A stretch of 64,000 nucleotides of DNA from Candidatus Omnitrophota bacterium. Lineage in GTDB: Bacteria > Omnitrophota > Gorgyraeia > B26-G9 > JBDRCZ01. Location: contig JBDRCZ010000043.1 of assembly GCA_043821285.1 (NCBI GenBank), forward strand, positions 2,903 through 66,902, written 5' to 3'. Position numbers and translations under genes: made by a program. A model generated the notes under the pieces. That model was not told the origin of the DNA. It saw nothing but the letters and a program-made list of their open reading frames with translations, and made no database searches. Each line of letters starts with the position of its first letter. Positions within the stretch are counted from its first letter, which is position 1. Of this stretch, positions 1,081 to 62,528 are shown piece after piece.

Positions 1081-1408
1081 AATTCCATCTCCCGGTTAGT
1101 AACTGTGGTTCTGTTAAAAATAACCGACACTTTTAATAAGCAGCCATAGGTTACAAGTAATCAGATATTATTGTTTTAGCCACGGATTTACACAGATGTT
1201 GCATGAATAATAATCAAATTGTTTAACTTTGTTTTTTGACAGAATGACCATGATTTGCAAGATTTTTAATTATACGTGTTAATCCTATCTATATACTTTT
1301 GGTACGGCCATAAAAAAGATACTATTAGTATAGTGCGCATTTGAAGAAAAGTCAACTATTTGCTATTTAAAGTGATTATTGCTATAATAGCGAAAATACG
1401 GGAGAACT

Positions 1409-2368
1409 ATGATGCTTTTTTGGACAATGTTTAAAACAACGGTATTTGCGCTAAGCCCGATTTTTTTAATTAGTGTGCTCGGGGCCGTTTTTGCAAAAAG
1501 AAAGATATTTTCACAAAATATTATACAGGGATTGACCAATTTGCTGGTTAATATCTGTGCGCCAGCATTTATTTTCTATAAAATAGTAAATAATTTTGAT
1601 GCGGCGGTTGTTTCTACGTATACCATAGTTTTTTTGCTGAGCATAGTTATTTTAACGGCTGCGGGTTTTATGGCATTTTTATTTTTAAGCATAGATCGGC
1701 GTATTACACGTAAAAAAGAATTTTTGGCGATGTCTGCATTCTACAATTGTGGGTATCTGCCGATTGCCTTAATTGCCGTGTTGTTTGAAAAGGCGCAAGC
1801 GGAACAGGCATATATATATACATTTATAATGATGCTTGCTTGTTCAACTCTAATGTGGTCGGTTGGGGCAGGGCTAATCAGCAAGTCAGGCTTTTCCAGA
1901 ACAGGAATAAAAGATATATTAAATCCTCCGTTTTGTGCGGTGTTACTTGGGAGTTTGTTTGCTATAGGAAATTTTAAGTCCCTGATTCCTAATTTTTTCA
2001 TGCCGGGGCTAAAATTAATCGGAAGCAGTATTGTTCCCTTATCCATGTTTGTACTTGGGGTAACACTGGGGCATATGCGATTTGGTATTAGCCAGTTCAA
2101 ATATTCAATTATTTATCTGATTATGGGTAAACTTATAATTTTACCGCTATTGGCGCTAATTTTTGTAAAAATTATCAGCCTTGAGCGTACACTGAGTTTG
2201 GTCTTTGTGCTGCAAGCAGCCATGCCCACGGCCGCGAGTATTCCGATAATTTCACTAAAATGGGGAAATAGTTCAGAGTTTATAACGCAATCTACGGTAA
2301 TAAGCTATATAATTTGTATATTTACGATACCGTTATGTTTTACCCTGGCAGTATTGATTTTTAAGTAA
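1409..2368 (+). CDS. AEC-family membrane transporter (auxin-efflux-carrier / malate permease type)
   Basis: A 319-aa polytopic membrane protein with about 10 hydrophobic segments and the size and architecture typical of the PF03547 family. Confidence 0.55.
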   Translation: MMLFWTMFKTTVFALSPIFLISVLGAVFAKRKIFSQNIIQGLTNLLVNICAPAFIFYKIVNNFDAAVVSTYTIVFLLSIVILTAAGFMAFLFLSIDRRITRKKEFLAMSAFYNCGYLPIALIAVLFEKAQAEQAYIYTFIMMLACSTLMWSVGAGLISKSGFSRTGIKDILNPPFCAVLLGSLFAIGNFKSLIPNFFMPGLKLIGSSIVPLSMFVLGVTLGHMRFGISQFKYSIIYLIMGKLIILPLLALIFVKIISLERTLSLVFVLQAAMPTAASIPIISLKWGNSSEFITQSTVISYIICIFTIPLCFTLAVLIFK

Positions 2369-2627
2369 ATAAATGGTATAATATTTCTGTGGTAAAAAAA
2401 TATTACCGATTACTACAGCAAGCTGTAACCTGTAGCCAAATTACATTGGTGGGGTGCCTCAGCTGCTGAGTTTTTCGATTTATTAATCACCTCAGATTAT
2501 GTGACCACAGATGATCCCAGATATTAAAAATCAGAATAATCTGTGAAAATCTGTGGTTGCTTGTAATTTATGATTGTTGATTAAAAGTGTAACTGATTTT
2601 TGACAGAACATTGTTCAGGTTAGTGGT

Positions 2628-3077
2628 ATGACAGTAATAGCGACCAATAAGAAAGCTAAACGTGATTTTCACATACTTGAAGCAATTGAGGCGGGCATAG
2701 AACTACGTGGTACAGAGGTCAAGTCACTTCGACAAAAAAGGGCAAATTTACAGGATAGTTTTGCCAGAGTCGAAGGGAACCAGATTTACCTCTACAATAT
2801 GCATATCAGCCCGTACGAGCAGGGTAATCGTTTTAATGTTGACTCGATAAGGGTAAGAAAATTATTACTGCATAAGAAAGAAATCCAGCGCATAACTGGT
2901 AAAATTGCCGAGCGGGGGCTTACCTTAGTGCCGTTAAGGGTATATTTTAAAAGGGGTTTTGCCAAGATTGAACTGGCCATCGCAAAAGGCAAACGCCTGT
3001 ATGATAAAAGAGAACAACTACGGCGCAAAACAACCGAGCGGGAGATTGAGAGAGCGATTAAGGCGAGAAATAAATAA
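2628..3077 (+). CDS. smpB: SsrA-binding protein SmpB
   Basis: It has the SmpB N-terminus (KKAKRDFHILEAIEAGIELRGTEVKSLR) and a basic C-terminal tail. It lies immediately upstream of the tmRNA gene. Confidence 0.9.
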   Translation: MTVIATNKKAKRDFHILEAIEAGIELRGTEVKSLRQKRANLQDSFARVEGNQIYLYNMHISPYEQGNRFNVDSIRVRKLLLHKKEIQRITGKIAERGLTLVPLRVYFKRGFAKIELAIAKGKRLYDKREQLRRKTTEREIERAIKARNK

Positions 3078-3109
3078 ATAGGCATTTTTGTTGACACAAA
3101 AATGAATGA

Positions 3110-3279
3110 CAAATGTCAAAATCCAAATGACAAATGAATCATTAAATAAAAAAATGACCTGCCAAACGACACTGCGGGCAGGCAGATAAAGAAAACAGCG
3201 GTTATTTTTTTTCTTTTGAGGATTAGAATGTTTAAAGATTCATTTGAATTTTGTCATTTGGAATTTGTCATTCTTTAGT
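3110..3279. repeat. About 37-bp inverted repeat pair (CAAATGACAAAT-rich) flanking a roughly 90-bp segment between smpB and ssrA
   Basis: The sequence gaatgacaaatgtcaaaatccaaatgacaaatgaatc (3110-3146) is the reverse complement, with a few changes, of ttcatttgaattttgtcatttggaatttgtcattc (3245-3279). Confidence 0.5.
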
Positions 3280-3302
3280 TTGGATTTTGAAATTCAATAT
3301 GT

Positions 3303-3730
3303 GGGGGTGAAAGGTATCGACTTAGGGATATAGGCTTATGTGGCATGCCGAGGTTGTCGGGAGGCCTCGTAAAACACCTGACAAAAAACAAACGCTGAGA
3401 ATATAACTGTTCCAGCAACAGTGGATCAGCTAATTGAGAAGATTGGTACAGGAATTGCCAATCCAATCATGGCTGTTCCATTGGCCGTTGCTGTCTTAAG
3501 ATAAGGCAGCCCGTCAACTTGGCTTTTCCTGTGGGCTAAGGTTGACGTCATTAAGCAGGATAGTTGGGCGCGATTAGCCTTTAGGCGCCGAACGAATCTC
3601 AAAAAGGCTGCCGCATATAAAATCCCGTTTACTGGAGTTTATATGCCTAAGCGAAAACAGCAAACTAAGCATGTAGAAGCATAAGTTACGATCCCCAAGG
3701 ACGCGGGTTCGAATCCCGCCACCTCCACCA
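3303..3730 (+). ncRNA. ssrA: tmRNA (transfer-messenger RNA, ssrA)
   Basis: The 5' GGGGGTG can pair with the 3' CACCTCC just before a terminal ACCA. A tRNA-like T-arm (gcgGGTTCGAATCCcgc) lies at 3703-3719. The gene sits directly downstream of smpB. I could not identify the tag-peptide reading frame. Confidence 0.8.
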
Positions 3731-3733
3731 GAT

Positions 3734-3766
3734 TTTTGCCCGCCAAAGAACGTGGCGGGCAAAAAT
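3734..3766 (+). terminator. Hairpin terminator after ssrA
   Basis: The sequence ttttgcccgcca-aagaacg-tggcgggcaaaa forms a 12-bp GC-rich stem flanked by T and A runs. Confidence 0.55.
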
Positions 3767-4190
3767 CAGAACCCGCGTAAGGCGGGTGATCTAATGTTCA
3801 ATTGTTCAAAAAATAGTTAACATCTTGCCAGTAGTAATTCACTAAGTAATTCGAACCCGAAAAAAGAGTTTTAGGGAAAAAGATTGTTTTTCCCTATTCC
3901 GAATGATACTAATTCGTAAGAGTAACATCGGGATGCCGATGTGATTCTTGTTAGTGTTCCACATTCGGTATCAGCGTACTGGAACAACATTGGCGGAGGG
4001 AAGAAAAATATTAAAAGGAAACTGTCAGAGTTTCCTTTTAAGGAGTGAAACCCAGCCACTGATATTGAGTGTTAGATAAACAAAAAATAAAATATAGTCT
4101 AAATATCACATAGTATAACATCAAGAACAACAACAAGAATATAGTGCATTGGATTGAACAATTATTTGCATTCTAAGAAGGCATTTAACA

Positions 4191-4661
4191 ATGTGGGAAC
4201 TTATTATTGGCGGTATTCTTGCTACGGTGGGAGGTATGGTAAGTATATGGTTTCAGGCAAAGAACGCCAGAAAGATAAGAATGGATGAAATAATTGCTGA
4301 AAAAAAGATAGTTGCAAATAATGAAGCATATATAAGAACCAAGAGGATTGAATCAATGTTAATACAGAGTTATAACATGGAAGATGTTAGAAATAAAATG
4401 CAGGACTATGAAGAGTGGTTTTTTACTAATTGCCTTTTTTTACCACGAGAATTTTCTAATAAATGGTTAACTTTGAAGATTAATGTCTCTAAAGTATGTA
4501 GAATGATGAAAAAGATTCCCTTTGAGGTCGAAAAAATAATAAAATTAGAGGGACAACTCAGTAGATTAGTGCGAGAGGCTAAAGACATAATTTATAAAGA
4601 AATGGGGCTTACAAGAATGAAAGTCGAGAATTTGCCTGAAGAAAACGATATTAACAACTAA
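4191..4661 (+). CDS. Hypothetical membrane-anchored protein (156 aa)
   Basis: The ORF has an N-terminal transmembrane helix (LIIGGILATVGGMVSIW). I recognise no domain. It is the first gene after ssrA. Confidence 0.35.
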   Translation: MWELIIGGILATVGGMVSIWFQAKNARKIRMDEIIAEKKIVANNEAYIRTKRIESMLIQSYNMEDVRNKMQDYEEWFFTNCLFLPREFSNKWLTLKINVSKVCRMMKKIPFEVEKIIKLEGQLSRLVREAKDIIYKEMGLTRMKVENLPEENDINN

Positions 4662-4724
4662 ACGATATAAGTATTATCGAGGGACAACGTTAACTATAGT
4701 AAGACAAATAAACGCGTCCATTAC

Positions 4725-5501
4725 ATGAAAAAGATATTTTTATTAATACTCATAGCAATATTTTTAGCAGGTTGTGCAACGATGCCTTATGTGTATTTAA
4801 GGTCGGATGTTTTTGCTGATTCTAAGACTGTCAGTTCGATATATATCATGCCGGTGGTAATAGAAGTTAAGGTTGATTCACAGTTTAGTATTAAACAAAA
4901 TAAACTGCAGGATTATCTGTATAAAAAAGAAAATATGATTAATGAGTTTGTTGCGTTGGAGTTTGAAAAAAGAGGATATAAAATTGTCCGTCAGAATAAA
5001 AAGTACCGCGAGTTGGATTTAGATAATCAGAATGATAAAATAGTTAAATTGGCTTTGCAGGAATTTTTAGCCTCGCCAACCAAAACCTACAGCGATGATT
5101 TAGATGTTTTTTTAAAAACAATTATTGCCGGAGAAAGGATACTTACTGATAAAGCCGGAAATGAAAAAAAGGTAGATTTTAAAAAAGTGATGGAACAAGA
5201 GGAAAAAAAAGGCGATGAGCCGCTGGTTAAGCAAACTTTAAAAATGAAAGACGTTATTCCGGAATTTATTGATACGGTACTATACATAGAAATTGAAAGT
5301 TTTATTGCTAACCGCGGCCTTTTTAATAGACTTCAGGAAAAAAGTACGGCAACGGTAAAAATGAAGCTTGTTAGTCTCAAAGAAGAAAAGGTGATTTTTT
5401 CTTACGGTGAGGAGCGGCACAAAAGAGATATTTTTCACGGGAAATCGTTTAGAAATGTTTTAATTGATATGCTGGAAAAAATCCCGATTAAAATAAAATA
5501 A
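4725..5501 (+). CDS. Lipoprotein (258 aa)
   Basis: It has a signal peptide with a lipobox (LAGC). An internal 133-bp segment is duplicated at 16268-16400. Confidence 0.55.
   Translation: MKKIFLLILIAIFLAGCATMPYVYLRSDVFADSKTVSSIYIMPVVIEVKVDSQFSIKQNKLQDYLYKKENMINEFVALEFEKRGYKIVRQNKKYRELDLDNQNDKIVKLALQEFLASPTKTYSDDLDVFLKTIIAGERILTDKAGNEKKVDFKKVMEQEEKKGDEPLVKQTLKMKDVIPEFIDTVLYIEIESFIANRGLFNRLQEKSTATVKMKLVSLKEEKVIFSYGEERHKRDIFHGKSFRNVLIDMLEKIPIKIK
5103..5235. repeat. Left copy of a 133-bp direct repeat (about 97 percent identical to 16268-16400)
   Basis: Direct alignment shows 4 mismatches in 133 bp. The repeat is internal to the lipoprotein gene. Confidence 0.85.
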
Positions 5502-5650
5502 ATATCACGCAAAGCCGCAGAGCACACAGAGAAAGAAATAAGCACGTACAGGGCATGTAGAGCAGGAAGATATAAATTAAAAGAAAGTTTGGAGCGGTAT
5601 TTTCCACAAGGTCATCTACGTAAAAAATGGGAGATGTTAGAAATTAGAAT

Positions 5651-6154
5651 ATGATACTACAATATCTGTTCATAGCACTTAGAGGAAATAATCCTTTTAC
5701 AATAATTAAAGCTCAACAATTGTTTGCAAAATATGGGTGTAAAGTTAGCCTTAATAAGTTAGAAGCGCACTATATTGTATCGAAAGAAACGAACTCGTGG
5801 GATGAATTTATAGATGCTGCAAAAATAATTTTCGAACGGGACGAGCAAATGAATTTTGAAAAGTTATGTGCTTTACATATGGCCGGTCATATTACTAAAA
5901 TAAAAAATGGGAAGAGATTGGATGAGATCGAAAAAGAAATAGCTATAAGATACGAACAGGAAATTAGAGAAAAGGGGCTTGAAGGGTATAATAAAACGAA
6001 GGTTCAGAAATTAATAAAGTGGGCACTAAAATTGATGATGAAAAATAAAGAAAAACAGGTAAAAATAGAAGAGGCAATCAAGAGGTATTCTTTGTCTGAA
6101 ATAGATGTTGCCTATATAAAAGAATATTATGGTCATATTTTTGAGAAAGAATAG
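5651..6154 (+). CDS. Hypothetical protein (167 aa), first gene of the XRE-RadC-hsdRMS string
   Basis: A complete ORF in the same orientation and immediately upstream of the HTH gene. I recognise no motif. Confidence 0.35.
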   Translation: MILQYLFIALRGNNPFTIIKAQQLFAKYGCKVSLNKLEAHYIVSKETNSWDEFIDAAKIIFERDEQMNFEKLCALHMAGHITKIKNGKRLDEIEKEIAIRYEQEIREKGLEGYNKTKVQKLIKWALKLMMKNKEKQVKIEEAIKRYSLSEIDVAYIKEYYGHIFEKE

Positions 6155-6184
6155 CCGGGGCAAGAGAAAAGTGGAGAAAAAAAT

Positions 6185-6376
6185 ATGCTCTCAGCAAATA
6201 TTAAAAAACTAAGAAAAAACACGCTATCCCATGAGCAACTTGCCCAGAAAGCCGGAATAACCTGCAGCACTCTTATCAAAATTGAATCCGGTCAAAACAA
6301 AAACCCGACCCTTGAAACAATCACAAAAATCGTAAATGCTTTTGGGGTTAAGATATATGAATTGGTGGGCGAATGA
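6185..6376 (+). CDS. XRE-family helix-turn-helix transcriptional regulator (63 aa)
   Basis: It has a Cro/C1-type HTH (LSHEQLAQKAGITCSTLIKIESGQNKNPTLETITKI). Its stop codon overlaps the radC start codon. Confidence 0.7.
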   Translation: MLSANIKKLRKNTLSHEQLAQKAGITCSTLIKIESGQNKNPTLETITKIVNAFGVKIYELVGE

Positions 6377-9887: not shown

Positions 9888-10109
9888 GAGTTTATATGAA
9901 ATCATTCTATGTTTTATCATTATACAACCGTCAGGTCTGGATTTTGGAAGAAAATGGAAAATGCGATTGTTGAAAAAAGCCCGATGGTACAAAGATCGTA
10001 AGATTTAAACCGGTACCAGCTAAAGACACCCCTGTTTTTATGAAAGCAACAATAGAACTTTATAATGACGGTATAAAGGAAAACAAACTGAACAAAAGCA
10101 GGTATACTA

Positions 10110-10150
10110 ATCTATAAAGTAGGTATTATATTAATAAAATTACCTACTTT
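10110..10150. promoter_or_regulatory. A 9-bp perfect inverted repeat (aagtaggta...tacctactt) in the hsdR-hsdM spacer
   Basis: The hairpin or operator is visible in the sequence and sits 15 nt upstream of the hsdM start. Confidence 0.35.
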
Positions 10151-10164
10151 ATGAGGGGATTAAA

Positions 10165-11670: not shown

Positions 11671-11674
11671 GATT

Positions 11675-12877: not shown

Positions 12878-12887
12878 AACTTCAGGC

Positions 12888-12927
12888 CAGTCTCAACTTG
12901 ACAACAGCTGTAACAACAGCAGATTAA
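12888..12927. repeat. Left copy of a 40-bp perfect direct repeat (cagtctcaacttgacaacagctgtaacaacagcagatta); similarity extends to about 55 bp
   Basis: It is identical to 14529-14568 and starts 10 nt after the hsdS stop codon. It contains the palindromic core ACAGCTGT. Confidence 0.85.
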
Positions 12928-12931
12928 ATAA

Positions 12932-13162: not shown

Positions 13163-13209
13163 ACCTATGACGCAGATAAGAAAAAGGGGATGCTTTTCGG
13201 AAAAGCTGT

Positions 13210-13818: not shown

Positions 13819-13936
13819 CCTTGTTTTTATACAGGGGATAAATCATCAATGTAATTGCTAAAGAGCAAAGCAAAAGAACAGCTTAAATAAAATATAGTGA
13901 TGAAAACACCAAAAATTTTTACCCTATGGAGGCAAT

Positions 13937-14497: not shown

Positions 14498-14528
14498 AAT
14501 AGCCCAAATATTATAATAAGCATCGGGG

Positions 14529-14568
14529 CAAGTCTCAACTTGACAACAGCTGTAACAACAGCAGATTA
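14529..14568. repeat. Right copy of the 40-bp perfect direct repeat
   Basis: It is identical to 12888-12927. Confidence 0.85.
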
Positions 14569-15442: not shown

Positions 15443-15468
15443 AAATTTTTTAATAAGGAATTAAGATA

Positions 15469-15873: not shown

Positions 15874-16207
15874 ACTCTACCTGAATGAAAATATACCTAT
15901 TCGTTTAGTTAGTTTGTTATCAAACCTTGGAATTATAGCAATACATACCTTAAGTGTAAATAATCAAGGAACTAGTGATGAGTTTCAACTGCAATATGCA
16001 GCAGAAAGAGGCTACATAATAGTAACACATAATAGAAAAAATTTTAGGCAGTTACATAAGAGATGGATCCATGAAGGGAAATGTCACGCTGGTATTATAG
16101 TTATGCGTCATGATGAGCCCGAACGTTTGGCAGATAGAATTAAGCGCTTTTTTGAACAAGATTATTTTAATATTACTTTACCATTTTGCGAATCGCCACC
16201 TGCATGA
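15851..16207 (+). CDS. DUF5615 / Mut7-C-like PIN-fold protein (putative toxin partner of DUF433)
   Basis: Its size and the motifs IRLVSLLSNLGIIAIH and YIIVTHNRKNF resemble that family. The DUF433-DUF5615 gene pairing is known. Confidence 0.5.
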   Translation: MPHIEIPKLYLNENIPIRLVSLLSNLGIIAIHTLSVNNQGTSDEFQLQYAAERGYIIVTHNRKNFRQLHKRWIHEGKCHAGIIVMRHDEPERLADRIKRFFEQDYFNITLPFCESPPA

Positions 16208-16249
16208 ATCAAAAGTTGCCACTGAGAAGTTAAACTTTGGAAAGAATTT

Positions 16250-16400
16250 ATGGATTTTCATAAAAAAGATGTTTTTTTAAAAACAATTATTGCCGGAGAA
16301 ATGATCCTTGCTGATAAAGCCGGAAATGAAAAAAAGGTAGATTTTAAAAAAGTGATGGAACAAGAGGAAAAAAAAGGCGATGAGCCGCTGGTTAGGCAAA
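16250..16400 (+). pseudogene. Duplicated internal fragment of the lipoprotein gene at 4725-5501 (right copy of the 133-bp direct repeat)
   Basis: The 16268-16400 segment is about 97 percent identical to 5103-5235. The reading frame is conserved only across the repeat. Confidence 0.6.
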
Positions 16401-16649
16401 TTGTTTGCGGTAATGTATGGACTGTTTTCGCTTATAGTTATACCATTTATGTTGATTGGAATGTTATTATCACCAGAAAATAGGGGACCCAGGGTAATAT
16501 TTCTTTTATTTATACCTATTTTATATATTATCCTTGGCTTTATTGGCGGTGTCATTGGTGCTTTTGTTTATAATCTTTGTGCTAAATGGGTTGGCGGGAT
16601 TGAATTAGAATTTGAGGAAGAAAAAGAACCACCCATTTCAAATGAATAA
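16380..16649 (+). CDS. Possible small two-helix membrane protein (89 aa)
   Basis: A hydrophobic ORF that starts inside the repeat in a different frame. The evidence is weak. Confidence 0.2.
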   Translation: MSRWLGKLFAVMYGLFSLIVIPFMLIGMLLSPENRGPRVIFLLFIPILYIILGFIGGVIGAFVYNLCAKWVGGIELEFEEEKEPPISNE

Positions 16650-17117
16650 TAGCAGTGATACTATATATGAAGAAACTGGACTCTGAAGGAAAAAAATAAA
16701 AAATAATAAATTATAAAAAAATGCCTTTTACCCCCTTTCATTTTGGCCAGCATGCTTTGGTGGATTTAGCTGTAGCTAAAAGAATAAATGTGCTGGTTTT
16801 TATCATGGCAAATATAATTATTGATATTGAGCCATTGTATGGGTTTGTTTCGTATACAGTGCTTTATAAAATTTGCGGCTTTATGTTTTTATCGGCAATA
16901 GCGCTATATATTTATAAAGCAAAAAATATATAACACCTTGAACCACAAAACTTACGATTTTTAATATAAATCCTTTTCCATTCGTGTTAATTTGTGTTAT
17001 TCGTGGTTGAATATTTTTTAACCTGCCGCATCTACAGTACGAGACTGTCGGGGACAAAGACTTTTCTTGTTTTATCTATGGTGTACAATGAAATAGTACT
17101 ATGACTTAAGCTTTTTC

Positions 17118-19119: not shown

Positions 19120-19300
19120 ATAATGGTAACGTTTTTCGGTTACGGTGACGGGGCCCGTTTCGGCGTTTGGTTACGGTAACGTCAGTTTTTTGTATTGTGT
19201 ATTGAGTTGTGAGTATTGTGTTTTTATTGTCATCCTTTTAGTTTTCATGCTCAATACGCAATACGTATTTATTAGACGTATCCGTTAAACGTTACCGATA
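19120..19300. repeat. Nested inverted-repeat element in the queC-queE spacer
   Basis: The outer arms are tggtaacgtttttcgg (19123-19138) and ccgttaaacgttaccg (about 19282-19297). The inner arms are gtattgtgtattgag and ctcaatacgcaatac. It also contains direct repeats of ggttacggt(g/a)acg. Confidence 0.5.
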
Positions 19301-19384
19301 TCGAAGATCCGCCGGTATTGTGGTGGACGGGCTTCCTAACCCTTACCGAAACTACGAAGTGGTACAGGCGGGAATTAAACAATC

Positions 19385-27124: not shown

Positions 27125-27988
27125 ATGAATAAAAAATCTGAAATTATTACTACATATGAACCGGATAATTCCTTAAAAAATGGCTATCTGGCAATATTTA
27201 AACAAATATTTTTCGAAATCATTAAAAACAGATGGTTAACTTACCAATTATTTAAGCGAGATTTTTTAACGCTTTATAAACAATCTTTTGTAGGAATCGT
27301 ATGGGTGTTTATTGTTCCATTGGTTAGTGTAGGGACTTTTATGGTGTTAAACCGGTCCGGTATTTTTACCGTTGGTAAGATTAATGTGCCTTACCCGGTA
27401 TATGCGATATTAGGCATTGCGTTTTGGCAATTGTTTGCCACCGGTTTGACCGCAACATCTAATTCTATGGTCAATGCTGGAGCAATGATCGTAAAGATTA
27501 ATTTTTCTAAAAAATCACTGGTTTTTGCCTCATTTGGACGGGCAATTATATCTTTTTTAATACAGATTGCTTTACTAAGCCTCTTGTTTGTTTATTACCG
27601 GATTAGACCAAGCATTGCGATCCTAATTCTGCCGCTGTTGATTATACCAATGATGTTACTTTCAATTGGACTCGGATTTATCGTTTCACTTTTAAATGGC
27701 GTAATCAGAGACTTAGGAACAATGCTTCCCATCCTCTTGACGTTCTTTATGTTTTTAACACCGGTCTTATATGCCAAACCGACAACCGGAATGCTCTGTT
27801 ATATTACTAATTATAATATTTTATATTATTTAGTTTCCGTTCCGAGAAATATTTTATTAACCGGTGTGGTGAATTCGAACTCCGACTGGAATGGATTTTT
27901 TATATCCGCGATTATATCGTTTGTCGTCTTTGTAATCTGCCTGGTTATATTTCACCTCACTGAAACACGGGTGGCGGAGAGGATATAA
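27125..27988 (+). CDS. ABC-2 type polysaccharide/teichoic-acid export permease (Wzm/TagG-like)
   Basis: It has 6 transmembrane segments and ABC-2 architecture, and is followed by a Wzt-like ATPase. Confidence 0.75.
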   Translation: MNKKSEIITTYEPDNSLKNGYLAIFKQIFFEIIKNRWLTYQLFKRDFLTLYKQSFVGIVWVFIVPLVSVGTFMVLNRSGIFTVGKINVPYPVYAILGIAFWQLFATGLTATSNSMVNAGAMIVKINFSKKSLVFASFGRAIISFLIQIALLSLLFVYYRIRPSIAILILPLLIIPMMLLSIGLGFIVSLLNGVIRDLGTMLPILLTFFMFLTPVLYAKPTTGMLCYITNYNILYYLVSVPRNILLTGVVNSNSDWNGFFISAIISFVVFVICLVIFHLTETRVAERI

Positions 27989-28046
27989 AATGGTTGAACG
28001 GAAAGTGTGGACTATGGATTGAATGGGGGGACGGTTGAATGGAGAT

Positions 28047-28414
28047 GATGTATTTGTTTCCTTTTAAAAAATTGGAAGTTTGGCGATTGGCTGTAAAATT
28101 AGTTAAGAAGATTTATAGTACGACTAAACGTTTCCCAAAGGAAGAATAATATGGACTAATTAGTCAGTTAAACCAAACTTCTGTTTCTGTAGCTTCTAAT
28201 TTAGCTGAAGGTAGTTCACGAATTAGCAAGAAAGACCAAGCCTATTTTTCACAACTTGCATATAGTTCGCTCATGGAAGTTATTTGTCAAATAAACATTG
28301 CTTAGGAGTTAGGATTTATAACGAGAGATAATTATAAGTATTTGCGAGAAGGAATCAGGATATTATCAAATAAAATCAATTCCTTGAGACACTTTCAAAG
28401 GAAAGGCATACAAT
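28047..28414 (+). pseudogene. Four-helix-bundle protein (23S rRNA intervening-sequence protein family) disrupted by two in-frame stops
   Basis: A single frame reads MMYLFPFKKLEVWRLAVKLVKKIYSTTKRFPKEE*YGLISQLNQTSVSVASNLAEGSSRISKKDQAYFSQLAYSSLMEVICQINIA*ELGFI..., which matches the TIGR02436 consensus but carries in-frame TAA and TAG codons. Confidence 0.65.
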
Positions 28415-29687
28415 GACTAACCCTATCCATTCAACCATTCAACCATTCAACCATTCAACATCATCTGACATTGCAATTAAAGTCGAACATGTCGCAAAAA
28501 AATACTGCAAATCCTTAAAAAGATCAATGATCTATGGGATGCAGGATATTGCCAGAAATACGCTGGGGCTACGTGCTCAGTCTGAAAGATTAAGAAAAGA
28601 GGAATTTTGGGCGTTGGATAATATTTCATTTGAGGTCAAAAAGGGAGAAACCTTGGGTATTATTGGCCCCAATGGTTCAGGGAAAACTACCCTTTTAAAA
28701 ATGTTAAACGGCATCTTTTGGCCGGATAAAGGCAAGATTAGCATAAGAGGCAGAGTTGGAGCACTGATTGAAGTTGGAGCAGGCTTTCATCCTCTACTTA
28801 CCGGAAGAGAAAATATTTATCTTAACGCCGCAATCTTAGGTATGACTAAAAAGGAGGTGAATGATAAATTTGACTCGATTGTCGAGTTTGCCGATATTGG
28901 CGATTTTATTGATTCCCCGGTAAAATTCTACTCCAGCGGGATGTTTGTAAGATTAGGCTTTGCCGTGGCCGTGCATTGTGAACCGGAAATTTTATTGGTA
29001 GATGAGGTTTTGGCAGTGGGAGATAAAGAGTTTTCTATAAAGTGCTATCAAAAAATACATGAGATTAAAAAAAGAGGGGCAACAGTTATTATAGTGTCAC
29101 ATAATGAATATACAATACGTGAACAGACAGAAAATTGTCTATACATAGAAAAAGGGGAAACTAAATTTTATGGCTCAAGCGAAGAGGCAATTAGTATATA
29201 CATAAAAGACAGATATGAGCAAAAATCTAAAAATATCAGCTTGAAAAAATTAGAGTCTTACCCTGTTTCCAAAAAAGCAAAAATAACTTCACTGAATTTT
29301 TTTGATTCGAATTGCAAAGAAATTTCTTATCTTGAATCAGGGCAGGAACTTAATATTGTGTTTGGGTGTATTATACATGAAACATTGCATAACCCCATTT
29401 TCGGCGTTAATTTCTATGATAACAGCGGTTTCATGTATTGTGCGAACAGCGATTATGAAAAAATAGAATTTCAAGAACTACCACCCAAAAAAATTAAGAT
29501 AAAAATTACTATTCTCAATTTCCATTTGCCCGTTAACAGCTATTTTTGTTCCACGATTATTGCTGAGGGAAATGCGGCAAATTTAATAGACTTAGAATAT
29601 ATGAAATATAGAATTGTAGTAGGCAGGGCGAAAAATTCAAGAGGATCTTTAAAATTGCCTACAAAATGGAAAATAGAAACCTTATAG
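28413..29687 (+). CDS. ABC exporter ATP-binding protein (Wzt/TagH-like) with a C-terminal substrate-binding domain
   Basis: It has Walker A (GPNGSGKTT), the signature YSSGM and Walker B (LLVDEVLAVGD), plus an extra roughly 170-aa C-terminal domain. Confidence 0.85.
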   Translation: MTNPIHSTIQPFNHSTSSDIAIKVEHVAKKYCKSLKRSMIYGMQDIARNTLGLRAQSERLRKEEFWALDNISFEVKKGETLGIIGPNGSGKTTLLKMLNGIFWPDKGKISIRGRVGALIEVGAGFHPLLTGRENIYLNAAILGMTKKEVNDKFDSIVEFADIGDFIDSPVKFYSSGMFVRLGFAVAVHCEPEILLVDEVLAVGDKEFSIKCYQKIHEIKKRGATVIIVSHNEYTIREQTENCLYIEKGETKFYGSSEEAISIYIKDRYEQKSKNISLKKLESYPVSKKAKITSLNFFDSNCKEISYLESGQELNIVFGCIIHETLHNPIFGVNFYDNSGFMYCANSDYEKIEFQELPPKKIKIKITILNFHLPVNSYFCSTIIAEGNAANLIDLEYMKYRIVVGRAKNSRGSLKLPTKWKIETL

Positions 29688-44102: not shown

Positions 44103-44211
44103 GATGTTTACTACTCAAGGATTAGCACTCTGTATGCATGACCTATTTATAAAAACAGGAAACAAATTCCTGTTTTTATGATTTTTACGCTACAAAAATA
44201 ATTGTTTTTTT

Positions 44212-44270
44212 AACCACTTTTTCTTTGTAAAAGAAAAGGTGGTTGACAAATTAGTGCCGAAGGCAATAAT
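44212..44270 (+). promoter_or_regulatory. Double-hairpin leader element, copy 1 (aaccactttttctttgtaaaagaaaaggtggtt plus ttagtgccgaaggcaataa), ending at the asnB ATG
   Basis: Both palindromes were read directly. The second overlaps the putative GAAGG RBS. Confidence 0.5.
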
Positions 44271-46206: not shown

Positions 46207-46227
46207 AAAGGCAATTGAGAGTTTTAT

Positions 46228-46295
46228 TTTCTTTTGGCTTACCTTTTCTTTTTATAAGAAAAGGTATGTGCTAAATTAATAACGAAGGAATAAGC
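46228..46295 (+). promoter_or_regulatory. Double-hairpin leader element, copy 2 (accttttctttttataagaaaaggt ... cgaaggaataa)
   Basis: It aligns with the copies at 44212 and 55191. Confidence 0.45.
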
Positions 46296-47519: not shown

Positions 47520-47687
47520 AAGAACAGAAGTCACCCACAGATTATGCAACTAGTTAACCTTAAAGAAATAAAGCCACGGATTAACACTGATTGGGCATGG
47601 ATAAAAAAAGGCGTGACTAAAAATATTTAACTACGAATAACACAAATTAACATGGACGGAGAAAGATTTATTATAATTTGAACATTA

Positions 47688-47724
47688 AAATCTGTGTTTC
47701 ATCTGTGTAAATCCGTGGCTGCTT
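47688..47724 (+). promoter_or_regulatory. Three phased heptamer repeats ATCTGTG-N4-ATCTGTG-N3-ATCCGTG followed by GCTGCTT, 7 nt upstream of the ATG
   Basis: Seen directly. The same module occurs at 2538-2556, 16970-16996, 62484-62504 and 1181-1201 (reverse orientation). Confidence 0.6.
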
Positions 47725-47730
47725 AAAAAT

Positions 47731-57603: not shown

Positions 57604-59280
57604 ATGATGGATAAAAAAAAGAAATTACTGGGTGAGATGCTTATTGAGGCGGGTTTAATCGATGCAGAACAGCTGCAAAAAGCGCTTAAGGAACAGCGAA
57701 AAATAGGCCGGCGTCTCGGACAAACTTTGGTTGAGCTGGGTTATATCAGTCAGGAAGATTTAATCATTGTTTTAGGACGTCAATTGAATATTCCGCATAT
57801 TGATTTAAAAAACTATAGCATTAAACCCGAACTGGCAAAATTAATTTCCGAAAACATGTGCCGGCGGCACGAGATGATTCCGCTCGATAAAGTGGGTAAT
57901 ACCTTAACTATTGGTATGGCGGATCCGCTTAATATCTTTGCTATCGATGAAGTTCAACGTCTAACCCACTGCCGGATTGAACAAATTGTCTGCTCTCCTC
58001 AGGCAATAATCGAGGCAATTGATTATTGTTATGATAAGAAACCAGCTCCGGCCAAACGAAAAAAAACACCAGCAGAAGATGAGGATAAATCCCCGGTTGA
58101 AACTATTGAGCAGGGTAAAGAGGCAATTGCAATTGTTAATGAAATCATTGAATTGGCCATAAAAGAAAGAGCTACCGATATTCATATTGAACCGGATGAA
58201 GAAATGGTCAGAGTAAGGCTGAGGATTGACGGTCTGCTGCATCAAGTCCGTACCTTTTCTCAGGATTCATTGGGTACGATTGTTTCAAGAATAAAGATTC
58301 TTTCTGCACTGGATATTTCCGAAAAACGTCTTCCGCAGGATGGCCGGTTTGGCGTGAAGGTTGAAGAGCGCGAAATAGATTTGCGCGTTTCGACGCTGCC
58401 GACCGTTCTGGGAGAAAAGGTTGTAATGCGTTTGTTGGATAAAGCACAATTGTTTGTCAAGCTCGAACAACTTGGTTTTTTACCAAAAAATTTAGAGCTG
58501 TTTGAAAAACTGATTCATCGTCCTTATGGGATGATCCTTGTTACCGGACCTACTTCCAGCGGAAAAACAACTACTTTGTATTCTGCTCTCCAGACAATTA
58601 ACACGGTAGAAAAAAATATTTTAACTGTAGAAGACCCGGTAGAATACCGGCTTCGTTATATTAATCAGGTCCAGGTAAATCCCCGGGCCGGATTAACATT
58701 TGCCGCGGGTCTCAGGGCATTTTTACGCCAGGATCCCAATGTGATCATGATTGGCGAGGTCAGGGATTTAGAAACTGCGGAAATTGCCGTACAGGCCGCA
58801 TTAACCGGACACCTGGTATTTAGCACCATACATACAAATGATGCCCCCTCTACGATTTCCCGCCTTATCGATATGAAGGTTGAACCTTTTTTGGTGTCCT
58901 CAGCGGTTGTTGGCGTATTAGCACAGCGCTTAATCCGCCGTATTTGTCATGAATGCAAAGAGGCTTATAAACCGGATAAAGAATTAATTAAAGAACTGGA
59001 CTTAGCACCCGGAGATTATACGTTTTATCAAGGTAAAGGCTGCGAAAAATGCAAACAGACGGGGTATTATGGCAGGGAAGGTATTTTTGAGTTAATGATG
59101 ATTAATGATGAGATTAAACAATTAATTCTCGAAGGCGCTCCGGCGATAAATATTAAACATGCGGCGCAAAAAACCGGATTAAAAACCCTCAGAGAAGATG
59201 GTGTGGCAAAAATCGTCTCCGGCATTACAACTGCTGCTGAAGTATTCCGCGTGACCGCAGAAGAGGCACGTAGTGTATAA
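57604..59280 (+). CDS. pilB: Type IV pilus assembly ATPase PilB (GspE family)
   Basis: It has a T2SSE N-domain, Walker A (GPTSSGKTTT) and a tetracysteine motif (CHEC...CEKCKQTG). Confidence 0.9.
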   Translation: MMDKKKKLLGEMLIEAGLIDAEQLQKALKEQRKIGRRLGQTLVELGYISQEDLIIVLGRQLNIPHIDLKNYSIKPELAKLISENMCRRHEMIPLDKVGNTLTIGMADPLNIFAIDEVQRLTHCRIEQIVCSPQAIIEAIDYCYDKKPAPAKRKKTPAEDEDKSPVETIEQGKEAIAIVNEIIELAIKERATDIHIEPDEEMVRVRLRIDGLLHQVRTFSQDSLGTIVSRIKILSALDISEKRLPQDGRFGVKVEEREIDLRVSTLPTVLGEKVVMRLLDKAQLFVKLEQLGFLPKNLELFEKLIHRPYGMILVTGPTSSGKTTTLYSALQTINTVEKNILTVEDPVEYRLRYINQVQVNPRAGLTFAAGLRAFLRQDPNVIMIGEVRDLETAEIAVQAALTGHLVFSTIHTNDAPSTISRLIDMKVEPFLVSSAVVGVLAQRLIRRICHECKEAYKPDKELIKELDLAPGDYTFYQGKGCEKCKQTGYYGREGIFELMMINDEIKQLILEGAPAINIKHAAQKTGLKTLREDGVAKIVSGITTAAEVFRVTAEEARSV

Positions 59281-60730
59281 TTTTTTGCGCAAAGAAATTT
59301 CTTTAAAAACTAAGATTAGCACAAGTCTCTTGATTGCTATTCCGCTGATGATTGCCGTGCTTGTCTTTGGCTCGGGATTGTTTACCTATTATGTTGTACA
59401 GCAATTTTTTACCAGGTTGGAATTTGCCGAGGATATTCATCAATTCGAACCGATTTTCCCAGTACTTAAACTCTGGATTAAAGTGTCGGTGATTGCTGCG
59501 GTATTTCTCGGTTTAGTTCTTGCCTATACAATTACGATCCCAATTAAAAAATTAACCCTTAGCACAAAACATATTACCAAAGGAGATTTTACAAAAAACG
59601 TGCAGATCTCTTCTGAAGATGAGGTTGGGATGCTTGGTAGATCTTTCAATGAGATGGTCAGGTCTTTGAACGAGCAAATCATTGAAAGCATGACCGGTGG
59701 AGTGGTTACAGTTAATTTAAAGGGCAAGATTGCGACTTTTAATAGTGCCGCGGAGTTAATATTGGGATATGATTCAAAGGATGTTATTGGAAAATCATAT
59801 GATATTTTTTCAGGAGATCAACAGAGTAATAATGAGTTTATTGATTTAATTAATGCCGCAATAATTAATAAAAAGACCAGTTCTTCTCAGGAGATTTATA
59901 TTATATCTAAAACCGGCAAGAAAATTTTAATTGGCATAACCACTTCACTGCTGAAAGATAAAAAAAATACAATGCTGGGGATTATTGTTACCTTTAAGGA
60001 TTTAAGACAGATCAAGTATTTAGAACAGCAAATCCGCCGTGCCGATCGACTTGCCGCGGTGGGAAATTTGGCGGCGGGTGTTGCCCATGAAATAAGAAAT
60101 CCTTTAGGCTCAATAAGGGGGCTGGTGCAATTATTACAGGAGGATTTACCGCGGGAACATCCAAAACATCAATATACCGAGGTTGTGCTCAGAGAAATAG
60201 ACCGGCTGGATAAAGTTGTTGATGACTTGCTTAGTTTTGCAAAACCGGAAACCGAAACAAAGTTGTCCCCGGAAACATTAGAGATAAATAAACTGATCGA
60301 TACAACGCTGCAGCTTGCCCGCCACGATTGTTTGAATATGAAGGTGAATATCGATAAAAAATACGGCGCGAATTTGCCGAAAATAAAAGCTGATCCGAAA
60401 CAATTGCAGCAGGCATTTTTAAATATAATTTTTAATGCCTTTCATGCCATGGAAACAGGGGGAACACTTACGATAATGACACAAAAACTACCGCAAAATA
60501 ATTGTCTGGAAATACATTTTGCCGATACCGGCATTGGCATGAGTGATGAAATAATGAGTAAGTTGTTTGACCCTTTTTTTACCACCCGCAAAGGCGGCAC
60601 CGGACTAGGGCTTACAATTACCCATCAGATAATTAGTGCACACCATGGCAAAATTGATCTGCGTTCAGAACCAGGTAAAGGTACAGAGGTTATAATTTCA
60701 CTGCCAATAGAGCAAAACTTTTTGGGATAA
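59273..60730 (+). CDS. pilS: Sensor histidine kinase (PilS-like): TM, HAMP, PAS, HisKA, HATPase
   Basis: It has an H-box (AAGVAHEIRNPLGSIRG), an N-box and G-boxes (DTGIGM, GGTGLGL). Confidence 0.85.
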   Translation: MYNFLRKEISLKTKISTSLLIAIPLMIAVLVFGSGLFTYYVVQQFFTRLEFAEDIHQFEPIFPVLKLWIKVSVIAAVFLGLVLAYTITIPIKKLTLSTKHITKGDFTKNVQISSEDEVGMLGRSFNEMVRSLNEQIIESMTGGVVTVNLKGKIATFNSAAELILGYDSKDVIGKSYDIFSGDQQSNNEFIDLINAAIINKKTSSSQEIYIISKTGKKILIGITTSLLKDKKNTMLGIIVTFKDLRQIKYLEQQIRRADRLAAVGNLAAGVAHEIRNPLGSIRGLVQLLQEDLPREHPKHQYTEVVLREIDRLDKVVDDLLSFAKPETETKLSPETLEINKLIDTTLQLARHDCLNMKVNIDKKYGANLPKIKADPKQLQQAFLNIIFNAFHAMETGGTLTIMTQKLPQNNCLEIHFADTGIGMSDEIMSKLFDPFFTTRKGGTGLGLTITHQIISAHHGKIDLRSEPGKGTEVIISLPIEQNFLG

Positions 60731-60742
60731 GTGTTAAGTATC

Positions 60743-60820
60743 GCGTATTTCGTATCTAATATCTCGTATCTAGTATCTCGTTTTTTTTTACTAGATACGA
60801 GATACGAACGACGAGATACG
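60743..60820 (+). terminator. Long imperfect hairpin built from CGTATCT-type repeats with a T9 run in the loop, between pilS and pilR
   Basis: A perfect 14-bp stem pairs tatctcgtatctag (60760-60773) with ctagatacgagata (60791-60804), and weaker pairing extends the stem outward. The loop contains ttttttttt. Confidence 0.5.
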
Positions 60821-60838
60821 TTTTATGGGGAGGGAAAA

Positions 60839-62248
60839 GTGAATCAGATACCAACGGTTTTAGTAGTTGATGATGACCAAAGCATGTGTTTTATTCTTCA
60901 GGAGGCATTTAAGAAAGAAAAGTATAACGTACATGTCGTCAAGAGCGGTGAAGAAGCGCTAAAACTTGCTTCAAAAATCTCATTTGATGTGATTACCTTG
61001 GATATTAAAATGCCGGATATGGATGGATTTGAAGTTATTACAAAACTAAAACAAATAAATCCTGATCACGTTATTGTTATTGTTACCGCATACGGAGCAG
61101 AGAAAGTTGCCATCGAAGCAATACAAAAGGGGGCGTATGACTATTTTACCAAGCCGTTTGACCTTGAGACGCTGCGGGTCGTGATCAGACGGGCGATTGA
61201 AAAAAATAGACTGGACTTGGAAAATAGAACCTTGCGTGACCAAATAAAAAAAAGATACGATTTTAAAAATATCATTGGCAAATCCAGTAAAATGCTGGAA
61301 GTGTTTGAATTAATGAGTAAGCTTATCAACACTGATGTTACCGTGTTAATATTAGGAGAAAGTGGCACCGGCAAAGAGTTAGTTTCCCGGGCAATACACT
61401 ATAATAGCCCGCGCCGCGATAAACCGTTTATTAAGATAAATTGTGCGGCAATCCCGGATACCTTGCTGGAAAGCGAGCTTTTTGGTCATGAGAAAGGGGC
61501 GTTTACCGATGCTGCCGCGGCAAAGCCCGGTAAGTTTGAACTCGCGCATGGCGGGACGCTCTTTCTTGATGAAATCGGTGACATGAGCGCGGCTACCCAG
61601 TCAAAATTATTACGTGTCCTTCAGGAAAAAGAAATAGAAAGACTTGGCGGGACAAAGCCGATCAAGGTTAATGTGCGGATTATTGTCGCAACAAATAAAA
61701 ATCTTACCCAGACGGTTAAAGACGGTGAATTCCGGGAAGACTTATATTATCGAATTAATGTTGTTTCAATAAATCTGCCGCCCTTGAGACAGCGCCGGGA
61801 AGATATTCCCTACTTGATTGATTATTTTTTGGCAAATTTTAATGCCGAGTTCCACCGCAACATCAAAAATATATCGGTTGATGCAATGGAGCTGCTGATG
61901 AAATATAACTGGCCAGGGAACGTACGCGAGCTGGAAAATGTTCTACAACGGGCAATACTTGTCGCAGATAAAGATACGATTATCAAAGAATGCCTGCCAA
62001 TGTATCTTCGTTCAATGGAAAAAGAAAGTTATTATCAAAAGGTCGAGCATACGGATTTTACCCAGCCGCTGAACGATATTGTAAAAGAAGTCGTTTGTGA
62101 TATCGAAAAACAATTAATCCTTCAAGCCTTAAATAAGACTAATTGGAACCGTACCCACGCGGCCGAACTGCTTAAGATCAGCCGCAAGAGCCTGTTTAAT
62201 AAAATAAAACAATATGATATATATGATAAAGAAGACAGGCATGTATAA
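60839..62248 (+). CDS. pilR: Sigma-54-dependent response regulator (NtrC family, PilR-like)
   Basis: It has a REC domain (VLVVDDD...D), an AAA+ sigma-54 activation domain (GESGTGKE, ESELFGHEKGAFT) and a C-terminal Fis-type HTH. The GTG start at 60839 follows GGGGAGGG. The track ORF start at 60731 would translate the hairpin. Confidence 0.9.
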   Translation: MNQIPTVLVVDDDQSMCFILQEAFKKEKYNVHVVKSGEEALKLASKISFDVITLDIKMPDMDGFEVITKLKQINPDHVIVIVTAYGAEKVAIEAIQKGAYDYFTKPFDLETLRVVIRRAIEKNRLDLENRTLRDQIKKRYDFKNIIGKSSKMLEVFELMSKLINTDVTVLILGESGTGKELVSRAIHYNSPRRDKPFIKINCAAIPDTLLESELFGHEKGAFTDAAAAKPGKFELAHGGTLFLDEIGDMSAATQSKLLRVLQEKEIERLGGTKPIKVNVRIIVATNKNLTQTVKDGEFREDLYYRINVVSINLPPLRQRREDIPYLIDYFLANFNAEFHRNIKNISVDAMELLMKYNWPGNVRELENVLQRAILVADKDTIIKECLPMYLRSMEKESYYQKVEHTDFTQPLNDIVKEVVCDIEKQLILQALNKTNWNRTHAAELLKISRKSLFNKIKQYDIYDKEDRHV

Positions 62249-62263
62249 AAACCGAAAGGCAAC

Positions 62264-62358
62264 CACAGAACCACGGATGACACAGATTACGCAATACTTA
62301 GCCTTACAAAAAAACAAGCCACGGATCAACACGGATTGAACACGGATTGAACACGGAT
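62264..62358. repeat. Array of 7 CACRGAT heptamers, four of them tandem at a 10-11 bp period (cacggatcaa cacggattgaa cacggattgaa cacggataaaa)
   Basis: Seen directly. Inverted copies (catccgtgaaaatccgcgg) lie at 62484-62504. Confidence 0.75.
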
Positions 62359-62368
62359 AAAAAAACTA

Positions 62369-62465
62369 TGGATAAAAAAATTCCAGTACTACATTATCTT
62401 ATCAACTTTGCATAATGCCTTTTAGGCTTGCTACAGAGGTAGTCGAGTTAAGGGAAATTTTTTAG
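62369..62465 (+). promoter_or_regulatory. Conserved upstream element E2 (paralog of 55450-55547)
   Basis: Alignment shows about 75 percent identity with the same conserved end blocks. It lies about 60 nt upstream of pilC. Confidence 0.55.
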
Positions 62466-62528
62466 TCGATTTGATTACTTAAACATCCGTGAAAATCCGC
62501 GGCTAAAAAATATATATAAGGGAGCTGT

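Follow-up and report, generated by a model that had tools for sequence, protein, structure and literature searches.

The 64,000-nucleotide (nt) stretch of DNA studied here belongs to a Candidatus Omnitrophota bacterium (NCBI assembly GCA_043821285.1, contig JBDRCZ010000043.1, positions 2,903 to 66,902 of the forward strand), and this whole stretch is referred to below as the window. A heptamer, ATCYGTG or CACRGAT depending on the strand, recurs in its intergenic spacers. Analysis of these copies and of their counterparts elsewhere indicated that the heptamers are probably the arms of small palindromic insertions, which would be cargo-less members of a pan-bacterial cassette family that is linked to genes for GxxExxY proteins and resembles the intervening sequences (IVS) of 23S rRNA. 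The elements were either inserted or expanded in the intercistronic spacers of this genome, and their class has hardly been described before. The evidence consists of the architecture of the elements, their distribution across phyla, their association with a cargo gene and the comparison of filled with empty junctions, from which the identity of the binding protein, the origin of the copies and the fate of the RNA may be inferred.

Exact matches to ATCYGTG/CACRGAT numbered 26 in the whole window, whereas 7.97 +/- 2.84 were expected, and none of 100 shuffles reached this number. Intergenic DNA, which makes up 11.9% of the window, held 17 of the 26 matches (binomial p = 2e-10); the remaining nine were singletons within open reading frames (ORFs), near the chance level. 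The intergenic copies were confined to four spacers (1081-1408, 2369-2627, 47520-47730 and 62249-62528). An exact-match scan placed the heptamer starts at 1181 and 1191; at 2506, 2539 and 2549; at 47536, 47575, (47585), 47690, 47701 and 47711; and, in the pilR-pilC spacer, at 62272, 62281, 62320, 62330, 62341, 62352 and 62485, with an additional ATCCGCG at 62495. Neighbouring copies were 9-11 bp apart. These results bore out the recurrent, phased heptamer family described in an earlier reading of the letters of this DNA (the sequence-only reading), together with the distances it had given to the start codons of smpB (72 nt), of the GT2 gene (about 10 nt) and of pilC (24-25 nt). Its figure of at least seven intergenic regions was too high: the strict heptamer occurred in only four spacers, and sister heptamers at two more brought the number to six in all.

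The same reading had mentioned opposite-orientation copies in the same spacers. These are real, but the description was understated, since the CCACRGAT (minus) and ATCYGTGG (plus) copies of one spacer face each other as the arms of a single imperfect palindrome. The elements follow the plan TTRGC-[CACRGAT + 3-4 nt]x2-4, loop, [ATCYGTG]x2-3-GCYAA. At 2501-2560, 47572-47720 and 62317-62504, at least two inverted CRCNGAT units with a period of 8-12 nt and a G/C clamp were found, which is how the arms of the proposed family are defined. The element at 2501-2560 is a complete short hairpin with two units on each side: the left arm ACCACAGAT-GAT-CCCAGAT (2504-2522) is followed by a 16-nt loop and the right arm ATCTGTG-AAA-ATCTGTGGT (2539-2557). 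It lies between a Mem_trans gene (end 2368) and smpB (start 2628), and its predicted RNA fold was -23.6 kcal/mol (z = -6.15). The hairpin at 47572-47720 is 149 nt long and has three units on each side of an 87-nt loop. Its left arm, AGC-CACGGAT-TAA-CACTGAT-TGGG-CATGGAT, is followed by an A-run, and its right arm is ATCTGTG-TTTC-ATCTGTG-TAA-ATCCGTG-GCT; an inverted-repeat search found the arms to be 90% complementary. This element begins 53 nt past the stop of a radical-SAM gene and ends 10 nt ahead of the GT2 start codon (fold -40.9 kcal/mol, z = -5.98). An orphan unit, CCCACAGAT at 47534-47542, 15 nt past the stop codon, is not part of it. The 188-nt hairpin at 62317-62504 has four units facing two across a 126-nt loop. 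The left arm, AGC-[CACGGAT]x4 with a spacing of 10-11 nt (62320-62358), is followed by a degenerate CTATGGAT and an A-run, and the right arm is ATCCGTG-AAA-ATCCGCG-GCT (62485-62504). The element ends 24 nt 5' of the pilC start codon, with a fold of -53.3 kcal/mol (z = -3.3).

The loop of the last element holds a copy (62368-62464) of the pil-operon leader. The leader itself covers about 97 nt (55449-55545) ahead of the ORF at 55564, with which the pil operon begins, and shares about 78% identity with this copy; on the pilC side, the right arm of the hairpin is interposed between the leader copy and the ribosome-binding site. The 97-nt sequence may be a leader, a promoter or another repeat. An extra unpaired left-type arm, AACCACAGAA-CCACGGAT-GA-CACAGAT (62261-62287), starts 13 nt past the pilR stop codon. 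A solo or decayed arm, TTAG-CCACGGAT-TTA-CACAGAT-GTTG-CATGAAT, was located at 1176-1208, about 100 nt 5' of the start (1080) of a minus-strand gene; no convincing partner arm was found.

The pil junctions were compared with those of syntenic loci in related bacteria. The nearest relatives of the window by PilC were Omnitrophota with about 60-66% identity, and three syntenic loci (L121-L123; loci outside the window are numbered with the prefix L) kept the order pilT-pilT-pilB-pilS-pilR-pilC. The stop-to-start distances at pilS-pilR and pilR-pilC were 3-4 nt in these loci, as against 108 and 280 nt in the window, where a GAGATAC hairpin fills the pilS-pilR junction and CACRGAT elements fill the pilR-pilC junction.

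The copies had been taken by the sequence-only reading for host operator boxes, that is, for sites bound by PilR or by a regulator of the OmpR/PhoB type, which would define a regulon of smpB, the GT2 gene, pilC and murI. The copies are indeed 7-bp direct repeats phased by one helical turn, as in OmpR/PhoB boxes (9-11 bp in the window, with a 10-bp period dominating across loci), start codons are nearby, and a PilS/PilR pair is encoded beside one cluster. However, an identical module was found in more than 10 phyla and in contigs of a viral catalogue, it was missing at the syntenic junctions of the relatives, and the arms mirrored each other, variable linkers included. The copies lie after stop codons and within operons rather than at promoters. 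As boxes of the OmpR/PhoB kind, which overlap the -35 region at the promoters of one organism's regulon, they were rejected: inside the pil operon they follow a stop codon and precede the next ribosome-binding site, and no excess of promoter-like sites was seen. Promoter and terminator scans across two elements gave nothing beyond shuffled sequences. The only exact match to the sigma-54 consensus, TGGCATACTAATTGCT at 63878-63893, is downstream of pilC, and no ATCYGTG was found within 63753-63877, ahead of this site. In the relatives L121 and L123, a sigma-54 motif (TGGCATG-N4-TTGCT) occupies the syntenic position after pilC, ahead of pilin (N_methyl) genes. From this synteny, the site at 63878-63893, rather than the pilC leader, is likely to be the PilR-dependent promoter, and a role of the heptamers as a PilR upstream activating sequence was rejected because they are not tandem sites upstream of the pilin sigma-54 promoter. 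Operator boxes are therefore largely refuted and can be considered a most improbable explanation. A protein-binding array, which had been suggested from the phasing, is plausible, but the protein is more likely to be associated with the elements than to be a response regulator of the host.

The distribution of the module was studied with the pattern CACGGAT-N3-4-CACRGAT-N3-4-CAYRGAT in one genome per species; about 10 chance matches were estimated from the information content. The three-unit module was found in at least 120 genome contigs from more than 10 phyla. Its carriers included Acidobacteriota, Verrucomicrobiota, Planctomycetota, several proteobacterial classes, Spirochaetota, Bacteroidota, Ignavibacteria, Nitrospinae and Omnitrophota, another member of the last phylum (L060) having it between rpmF and plsX. 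In the finished genome of the cultured Gemmatirosa kalamazoonensis, CGCGGAT x3 faced ATCCGCG x3 beside a GxxExxY gene, and the finished genome of the cultured Treponema saccharophilum had single-unit arms. The viral catalogue contributed 118 further stretches with the module. A complete CACGGAT/ATCCGTG hairpin was also observed at 7486-7550 of L020, a 226-kb contig binned as Methanosarcinaceae; if this binning is right, the family reaches archaea.

An inverted partner was present within 1.5 kb of 75 of 116 left arrays, most partners being 7-150 nt off. The consensus outside the window was TTRGC-CACGGAT-GAA-CACGGAT-nnA-CACGGAT … and its mirror image. The possibility that the elements are always nested in pre-existing palindromes was rejected, since arm complementarity ended 0-5 nt past the clamp in most cases. 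In the columns that vary (linkers and R position), complementarity between the arms of one element was 0.69, compared with 0.50 +/- 0.02 for shuffled partners. The logo of the units, which were gathered by the phased GAT only, was C 75%, R 85%, C 76%, N, G, A, T, and the period was 10 bp in 247 of 395 unit intervals. In the genome loci, the hairpins started a median of about 18 nt past the upstream stop codon, whereas the distance to the next start codon varied more; convergent spacers with elements outnumbered divergent ones (14 vs 6).

Such placement, between a stop and the next ribosome-binding site and often within about 20 nt of the stop, would also be expected if the palindromes were RNA hairpins of benefit to the host, acting as RNase III processing sites, as stabilisers like the repetitive extragenic palindromes (REP) and bacterial interspersed mosaic elements (BIME), or as translational-coupling devices between cistrons. 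The strong predicted folds, the excess of convergent over divergent spacers and the co-variation of the arms at orthologous loci agree with this, as does the cutting of the Coxiella IVS heptamer repeats by RNase III (PMC4990558). Nevertheless, the transcribed strand had no bias for G·U over A·C in two tests, the heptamer sequence itself was constrained beyond the needs of pairing, and the main period was 10 bp, whereas 11 would be expected for an A-form helix. The syntenic relatives lack the elements. Rfam had no match to 47572-47720 or 62317-62504 even at E <= 1, and at gathering thresholds it identified in the whole window only a transfer-messenger RNA (tmRNA) and no rRNA. Host-beneficial RNA hairpins are therefore rather unlikely. 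The constraint on the heptamer sequence, together with the 10-bp phasing, points instead to recognition of the arms by a protein on duplex DNA.

The association of the arms with a cargo gene was then considered. Five arm pairs 379-609 nt apart enclosed an ORF for a GxxExxY protein (TIGR04256 E = 1e-35; PF13366, PDDEXK_3), which was intact in three of them (L006, L047, L074) and decayed in the other two (L116, L118). A sixth arm pair (L016, 324 nt apart) was without an ORF of 50 amino acids (aa) or more, and two arm pairs more than 1 kb apart enclosed ordinary genes. In 0.84 Mb of genome loci, all eight GxxExxY ORFs adjoined CACGGAT-type arms. As a reverse test, 80 metagenome GxxExxY loci were picked by protein similarity alone, of which 65 had full flanks. 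CRCNGAT arrays were found within 150 nt of the gene in 63 of these 65 loci, and 33 of them had a clean arm-ORF-arm layout. The density of arrays was 5.5 per kb near the GxxExxY gene vs 0.41 per kb farther off. In the metagenome contigs L181 and L186, a complete short hairpin stood on each side of the GxxExxY gene (hairpin-ORF-hairpin), and the gene was not in a loop.

The GxxExxY start codon sits within an arm (CACGG-ATG-AAC-ACG-GAT = MNTD…), and for this reason the proteins have MNTDEHG-type N-terminal peptides. The heptamer differed between elements (CACGGAT, CGCGGAT, CACAGAT, CGCAGAT, CGCTGAT), and the two arms of one element agreed. At orthologous ispD-GxxExxY-ispF loci, the unit was CACGGAT or CGCGGAT depending on the contig, both arms having switched together. 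This ispD-ispF cassette (MRIGYGWDSHEF…), with an intact ORF, was observed in diverged soil contigs (L124-L133, L135, L141, L172, L176).

No solved structures related by sequence to GxxExxY were found. The AlphaFold model of the protein (predicted local distance difference test score 84.7) was closest, weakly, to the Holliday-junction resolvase Hjc and to archaeal tRNA-splicing endonuclease (E = 2e-3, template modelling (TM) score 0.44, 21% identity). Archaeal Hjc and archaeal tRNA-splicing endonuclease are small PD-(D/E)XK-type nucleases that read nucleic-acid structure and not sequence alone. The likeness of the predicted fold to these enzymes may serve as a lead but is not a demonstration. 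A literature search on the arm sequence returned unrelated primers only, none of the papers found to mention GxxExxY treats the repeats, and a search on IVS with mobile and inverted-repeat aspects gave nothing relevant.

If the heptamers are arms of insertions, the elements would be selfish or neutral inserted DNA of the general kind of the 23S rRNA IVS. A protein associated with the element would recognise the phased array on duplex DNA, and the best candidate for this reader would be the GxxExxY nuclease with its minimal PD-(D/E)XK fold. The transcribed palindrome would fold back and keep the flanking cistrons adjacent, so that the insert could be tolerated or trimmed.

A classical miniature inverted-repeat transposable element (MITE), that is, a non-autonomous cut-and-paste element with multi-site terminal inverted repeats served in trans by a conventional transposase, had been the fallback of the sequence-only reading. 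This proposal is closer to the data than operator boxes in that the termini are inverted. They are made of repeated sub-sites, several copies occur per genome, the placement is intergenic, and filled and empty junctions were found. Other parts of the proposal did not hold. The check for target-site duplications that had been proposed gave none: in 57 elements, the lengths of flanking direct repeats equalled those of a shifted control. The interiors were unrelated between copies, no transposase genes were seen beside the arms, and the sole recurrent cargo encodes a 125-aa protein with a PD-(D/E)XK fold, which is no known transposase. A classical MITE is therefore very unlikely.

Several of the findings also weigh against the interpretation of the heptamers as arms of insertions from the GxxExxY-linked family. 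The absence of target-site duplications at the ends of the 57 elements is one of them. The loops were unrelated between copies even within one genome (two in L007, three in the window), and the sequences did not point to a master copy that had recently multiplied. A profile search of the six-frame translation detected neither a GxxExxY gene nor a remnant of one in the 64-kb window, the copies of which are cargo-less. The arm mismatches on the sense strand had no excess of G·U over A·C (20 vs 25), and the ORF-carrying elements had G·U 31 vs A·C 23 (p = 0.34); selection for RNA pairing was thus not visible. Given the low PilC identity (about 60%), the comparison of empty with filled junctions is deep and not recent. 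The match to the Hjc fold was weak (TM 0.44, E = 2e-3). That the ispD-ispF cassette keeps its site and an intact ORF in diverged genomes suggests long vertical descent or a benefit to the host more than active mobility. Finally, a pure palindrome model does not account for the arrays of some viral-catalogue contigs, which had 5-8 arrays, many of them unpaired and all in the same direction. In the IMG/VR contigs L216 (1-9585) and L234, up to 12 ATCCGTG-type arrays in 9.6 kb were observed, unpaired and in one orientation, often with CTCTGTG arrays directly after them.

It might also be supposed that the arrays bind a host architectural protein (a nucleoid protein or one like integration host factor (IHF) or HU), or that, without any mobility, the palindromes grew in place through slippage and through template switching where hairpins already existed. 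In Geobacter metallireducens, 53 paired sites on opposite strands, each with 3-5 tandem units of 7-9 nt, were described, and IHF/HU was suggested for them (PMC2700814). In the window, many unit sequences share one architecture, the arms may differ in unit number (four vs two at 62317-62504), and the units changed in concert at orthologous loci. Growth in place, however, leaves unexplained the recurrence of the same heptamer, clamp and spacing across phyla and the tight link to one gene family, and a host protein common to all carriers was not identified. An explanation of this kind is unlikely, and insertions of the GxxExxY-linked family are still preferred.

A broader proposal may be made tentatively, as a doubtful but far-reaching possibility: the heptamer hairpins, the GxxExxY genes and the 23S_rRNA_IVP genes might together form one unrecognised pan-bacterial class of selfish cassettes, duplication-free and driven by an Hjc-like nuclease. 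In such a class, the insertion targets might be post-stop intercistronic spacers, the loops of similar elements and rRNA helices; the minimal Hjc-like nuclease might read the phased CRCNGAT units once a cruciform or hairpin has been extruded; and the class might possibly also occur in archaea and phages. If true, this would mean a new mechanism of mobility and a function for two very large families of "hypothetical" proteins.

Related arrays with other units were also found in the window. The copies claimed upstream of murI form an array that is present (16980-17009), but its unit is a sister heptamer, ATTCGTG/ATTTGTG, and not ATCYGTG; the arm reads ATTCGTG-TTA-ATTTGTG-TT-ATTCGTGG-TTG and has a possible decayed partner, AACCACAAAAC, at about 16941. 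The variants noticed at 53030-53240 are likewise a real array (53027-53239) of a different sister heptamer, CACAGAG/CTCTGTG; its left-type units span 53027-53059, and right-type arrays occupy both 53112-53139 and 53224-53239 (…CTCTGTGG-TTAAAAAA). Another short array, CCGCAGAG-CACACAGAG at 5515-5531, is of the left type and belongs to the CACAGAG family. The sister heptamers CTCTGTG, CTTCGTG and ATTCGTG were found together with ATCCGTG arrays in outside loci too, and CTCTGTG arrays adjoined ATCCGTG arrays in the viral-catalogue locus L216 and in five other loci. This sharing of loci agrees with the "variant" sites of the window.

Hairpins of the same architecture with unrelated units were identified by Tandem Repeats Finder and an inverted-repeat search. 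The 108-nt pilS-pilR spacer is taken up by a (GTATCTC)n/(GAGATAC)n hairpin at 60738-60820 (fold -37.3 kcal/mol, z = -6.9). In the spacer from the smpB stop (3077) to the tmRNA gene (ssrA, 3303), tandem arms of AATGACAAATG/CATTTGTCATT surround an inner hairpin (3101-3276); the tmRNA gene itself extends over 3303-3730 (Rfam 188.8 bits), and the tag predicted for it by ARAGORN is unusually long (VPATVDQLIEKIGTGIANPIMAVPLAVAVLR). The structure at 19120-19301 is a nested pair with GGTAACG/CGTTACC arms on the outside and a TGTATTG/CAATACG hairpin (19191-19265; fold z = -6.8) on the inside, and a GGTAACG-type unit was present also in the loop of the outside locus L045. By eye, tandem-armed structures or solo arms were counted in about 10 of the 23 spacers of at least 100 nt in the window. 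In the related Omnitrophota locus L121, the arms of a long hairpin at 16132-16456 are built from CCTAAAC/CTCTAAA-type units in tandem; the lineage has the architecture in common, with different units.

One hairpin of this architecture, at 27978-28466, bears cargo. It has a GGTTGAATGG-type left arm and CCATTCAA x4 as its right arm (GGTTGAATGG/CCATTCAACC arms), and its cargo is a decayed 23S_rRNA_IVP four-helix-bundle ORF at about 28045-28416 with two in-frame stops (PF05635 E = 2.9e-30; TIGR02436 E = 5e-27). The ATG of the ORF called at 28413-29687 overlaps the TGA of this decayed ORF, and its reading then crosses the CCATTCAA x4 arm (MTNPIHSTIQPFNHST…); its true start probably lies further downstream. 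Across all the outside loci, a profile search for four-helix-bundle genes gave only one match, in L286, where GCCGANN x4 followed.

Other repeats of the window were recorded as well. A 38-nt direct repeat, AGTCTCAACTTGACAACAGCTGTAACAACAGCAGATTA, at 12889-12926 and 14531-14568 bounds a segment of about 1.6 kb, and its second copy is followed by ACAGACTA x2; the two copies may bound a small insertion. A terminator-like hairpin on AAAGAAAAGGTGGTT and its complement recurs at 44206-44250, 55212-55239 and about 46225-46270 and forms another small family of repeats without relation to the heptamers.

These results indicate that the gene-dense genomes of uncultured bacteria can carry much DNA of this kind, which is easily mistaken for regulatory sites; such a guess was made for Geobacter in 2009 and again in the sequence-only reading. 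An exact phased heptamer tied to GxxExxY across phyla offers a testable handle on PF13366 and, by extension, on PF05635, the protein family of the 23S IVS, both of them very large families without known function. It may also account for the heptamer arrays that recur beside start codons in unrelated bacteria. For annotation, the elements are a hazard: pipelines translate the arms into N-terminal extensions (MNTDEHG…) and small ORFs that are spurious, and the arrays may be called as false CRISPRs or operators.

Among the known systems, heptamers repeated contiguously close to start codons are known from Beggiatoaceae, Cyanobacteria and Bacteroidetes (TAACTGA; MacGregor 2015, PMC4679880) and from Nostoc (bioRxiv 10.1101/2022.06.06.494920). 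Like the present elements, these repeats and the cyanobacterial short tandemly repeated repetitive (STRR) sequences form arrays by start codons, have a patchy cross-phylum spread that suggests horizontal transfer, and have had binding proteins proposed for them. They are, however, contiguous 7-nt repeats, nearly always in one orientation, whereas the arrays studied here have a 10-11 nt period, are mostly inverted pairs and have a specific cargo family. The hairpin-ORF-hairpin layout of L181 and L186 is similar to that of integron cassettes split by attC recombination sites, but the core sequence differs from R''-L''/L'-R' (GTTRRRY), and the loci read showed no integrase.

REP, BIME and REPIN sequences and Correia-type MITEs are also short imperfect palindromes with many copies, intergenic, commonly located just past stops and tolerated in operons. 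REP sequences are species-specific and tied to REP-associated tyrosine transposases (RAYT; IS200/IS605-like), while MITEs have target-site duplications and conserved interiors. The arms described here, by contrast, are helically phased tandem units kept across phyla, there is no duplication, the loops are unrelated and the gene is GxxExxY. No RAYT gene was found beside arms in the loci read, no genome-wide search for such genes having been made.

The paired repeats of Geobacter metallireducens (24+21+8 opposite-strand pairs, each site with 3-5 tandem 7-9-nt units) were read as sites that bind global regulators, with IHF/HU suggested (Aklujkar et al. 2009, PMC2700814). They have in common with the present elements the pairing on opposite strands at variable distance and the tandem short units; they number dozens per genome, often lie between operon genes such as proB-proA, and are missing from the sister species. 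Their units are different (GTTGCTYN, TCTCCGTS, MTYCTGA), they were described in one genome, and neither a cargo gene nor a cross-phylum family was reported for them.

The IVS of 23S rRNA in Coxiella, Leptospira, Salmonella and others have an inverted-repeat stem and a loop that sometimes holds a small, often decaying ORF (PF05635, "S23p"), which is the plan of the present elements. In Coxiella, three tandem GACAGAT heptamers, strain-variable in number, are located at the 5' side of the stem, RNase III cuts at the first of them, and the S23p ORF is decaying (PMC4990558). The heptamers of Coxiella are contiguous, whereas the units studied here are 10-11 nt apart. The IVS occupy helix 9, 25 or 45 of the rRNA, whereas the present elements lie between protein or tmRNA genes in a window without rRNA, and the cargo of the CACRGAT family is PF13366 (GxxExxY) and not PF05635. 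Genes of the 23S_rRNA_IVP family also occur between cas operon genes (PMC3936711), and in the window, the structure at 27978-28466 is like the 23S IVS in that a decayed PF05635 gene is enclosed within tandem-repeat arms.

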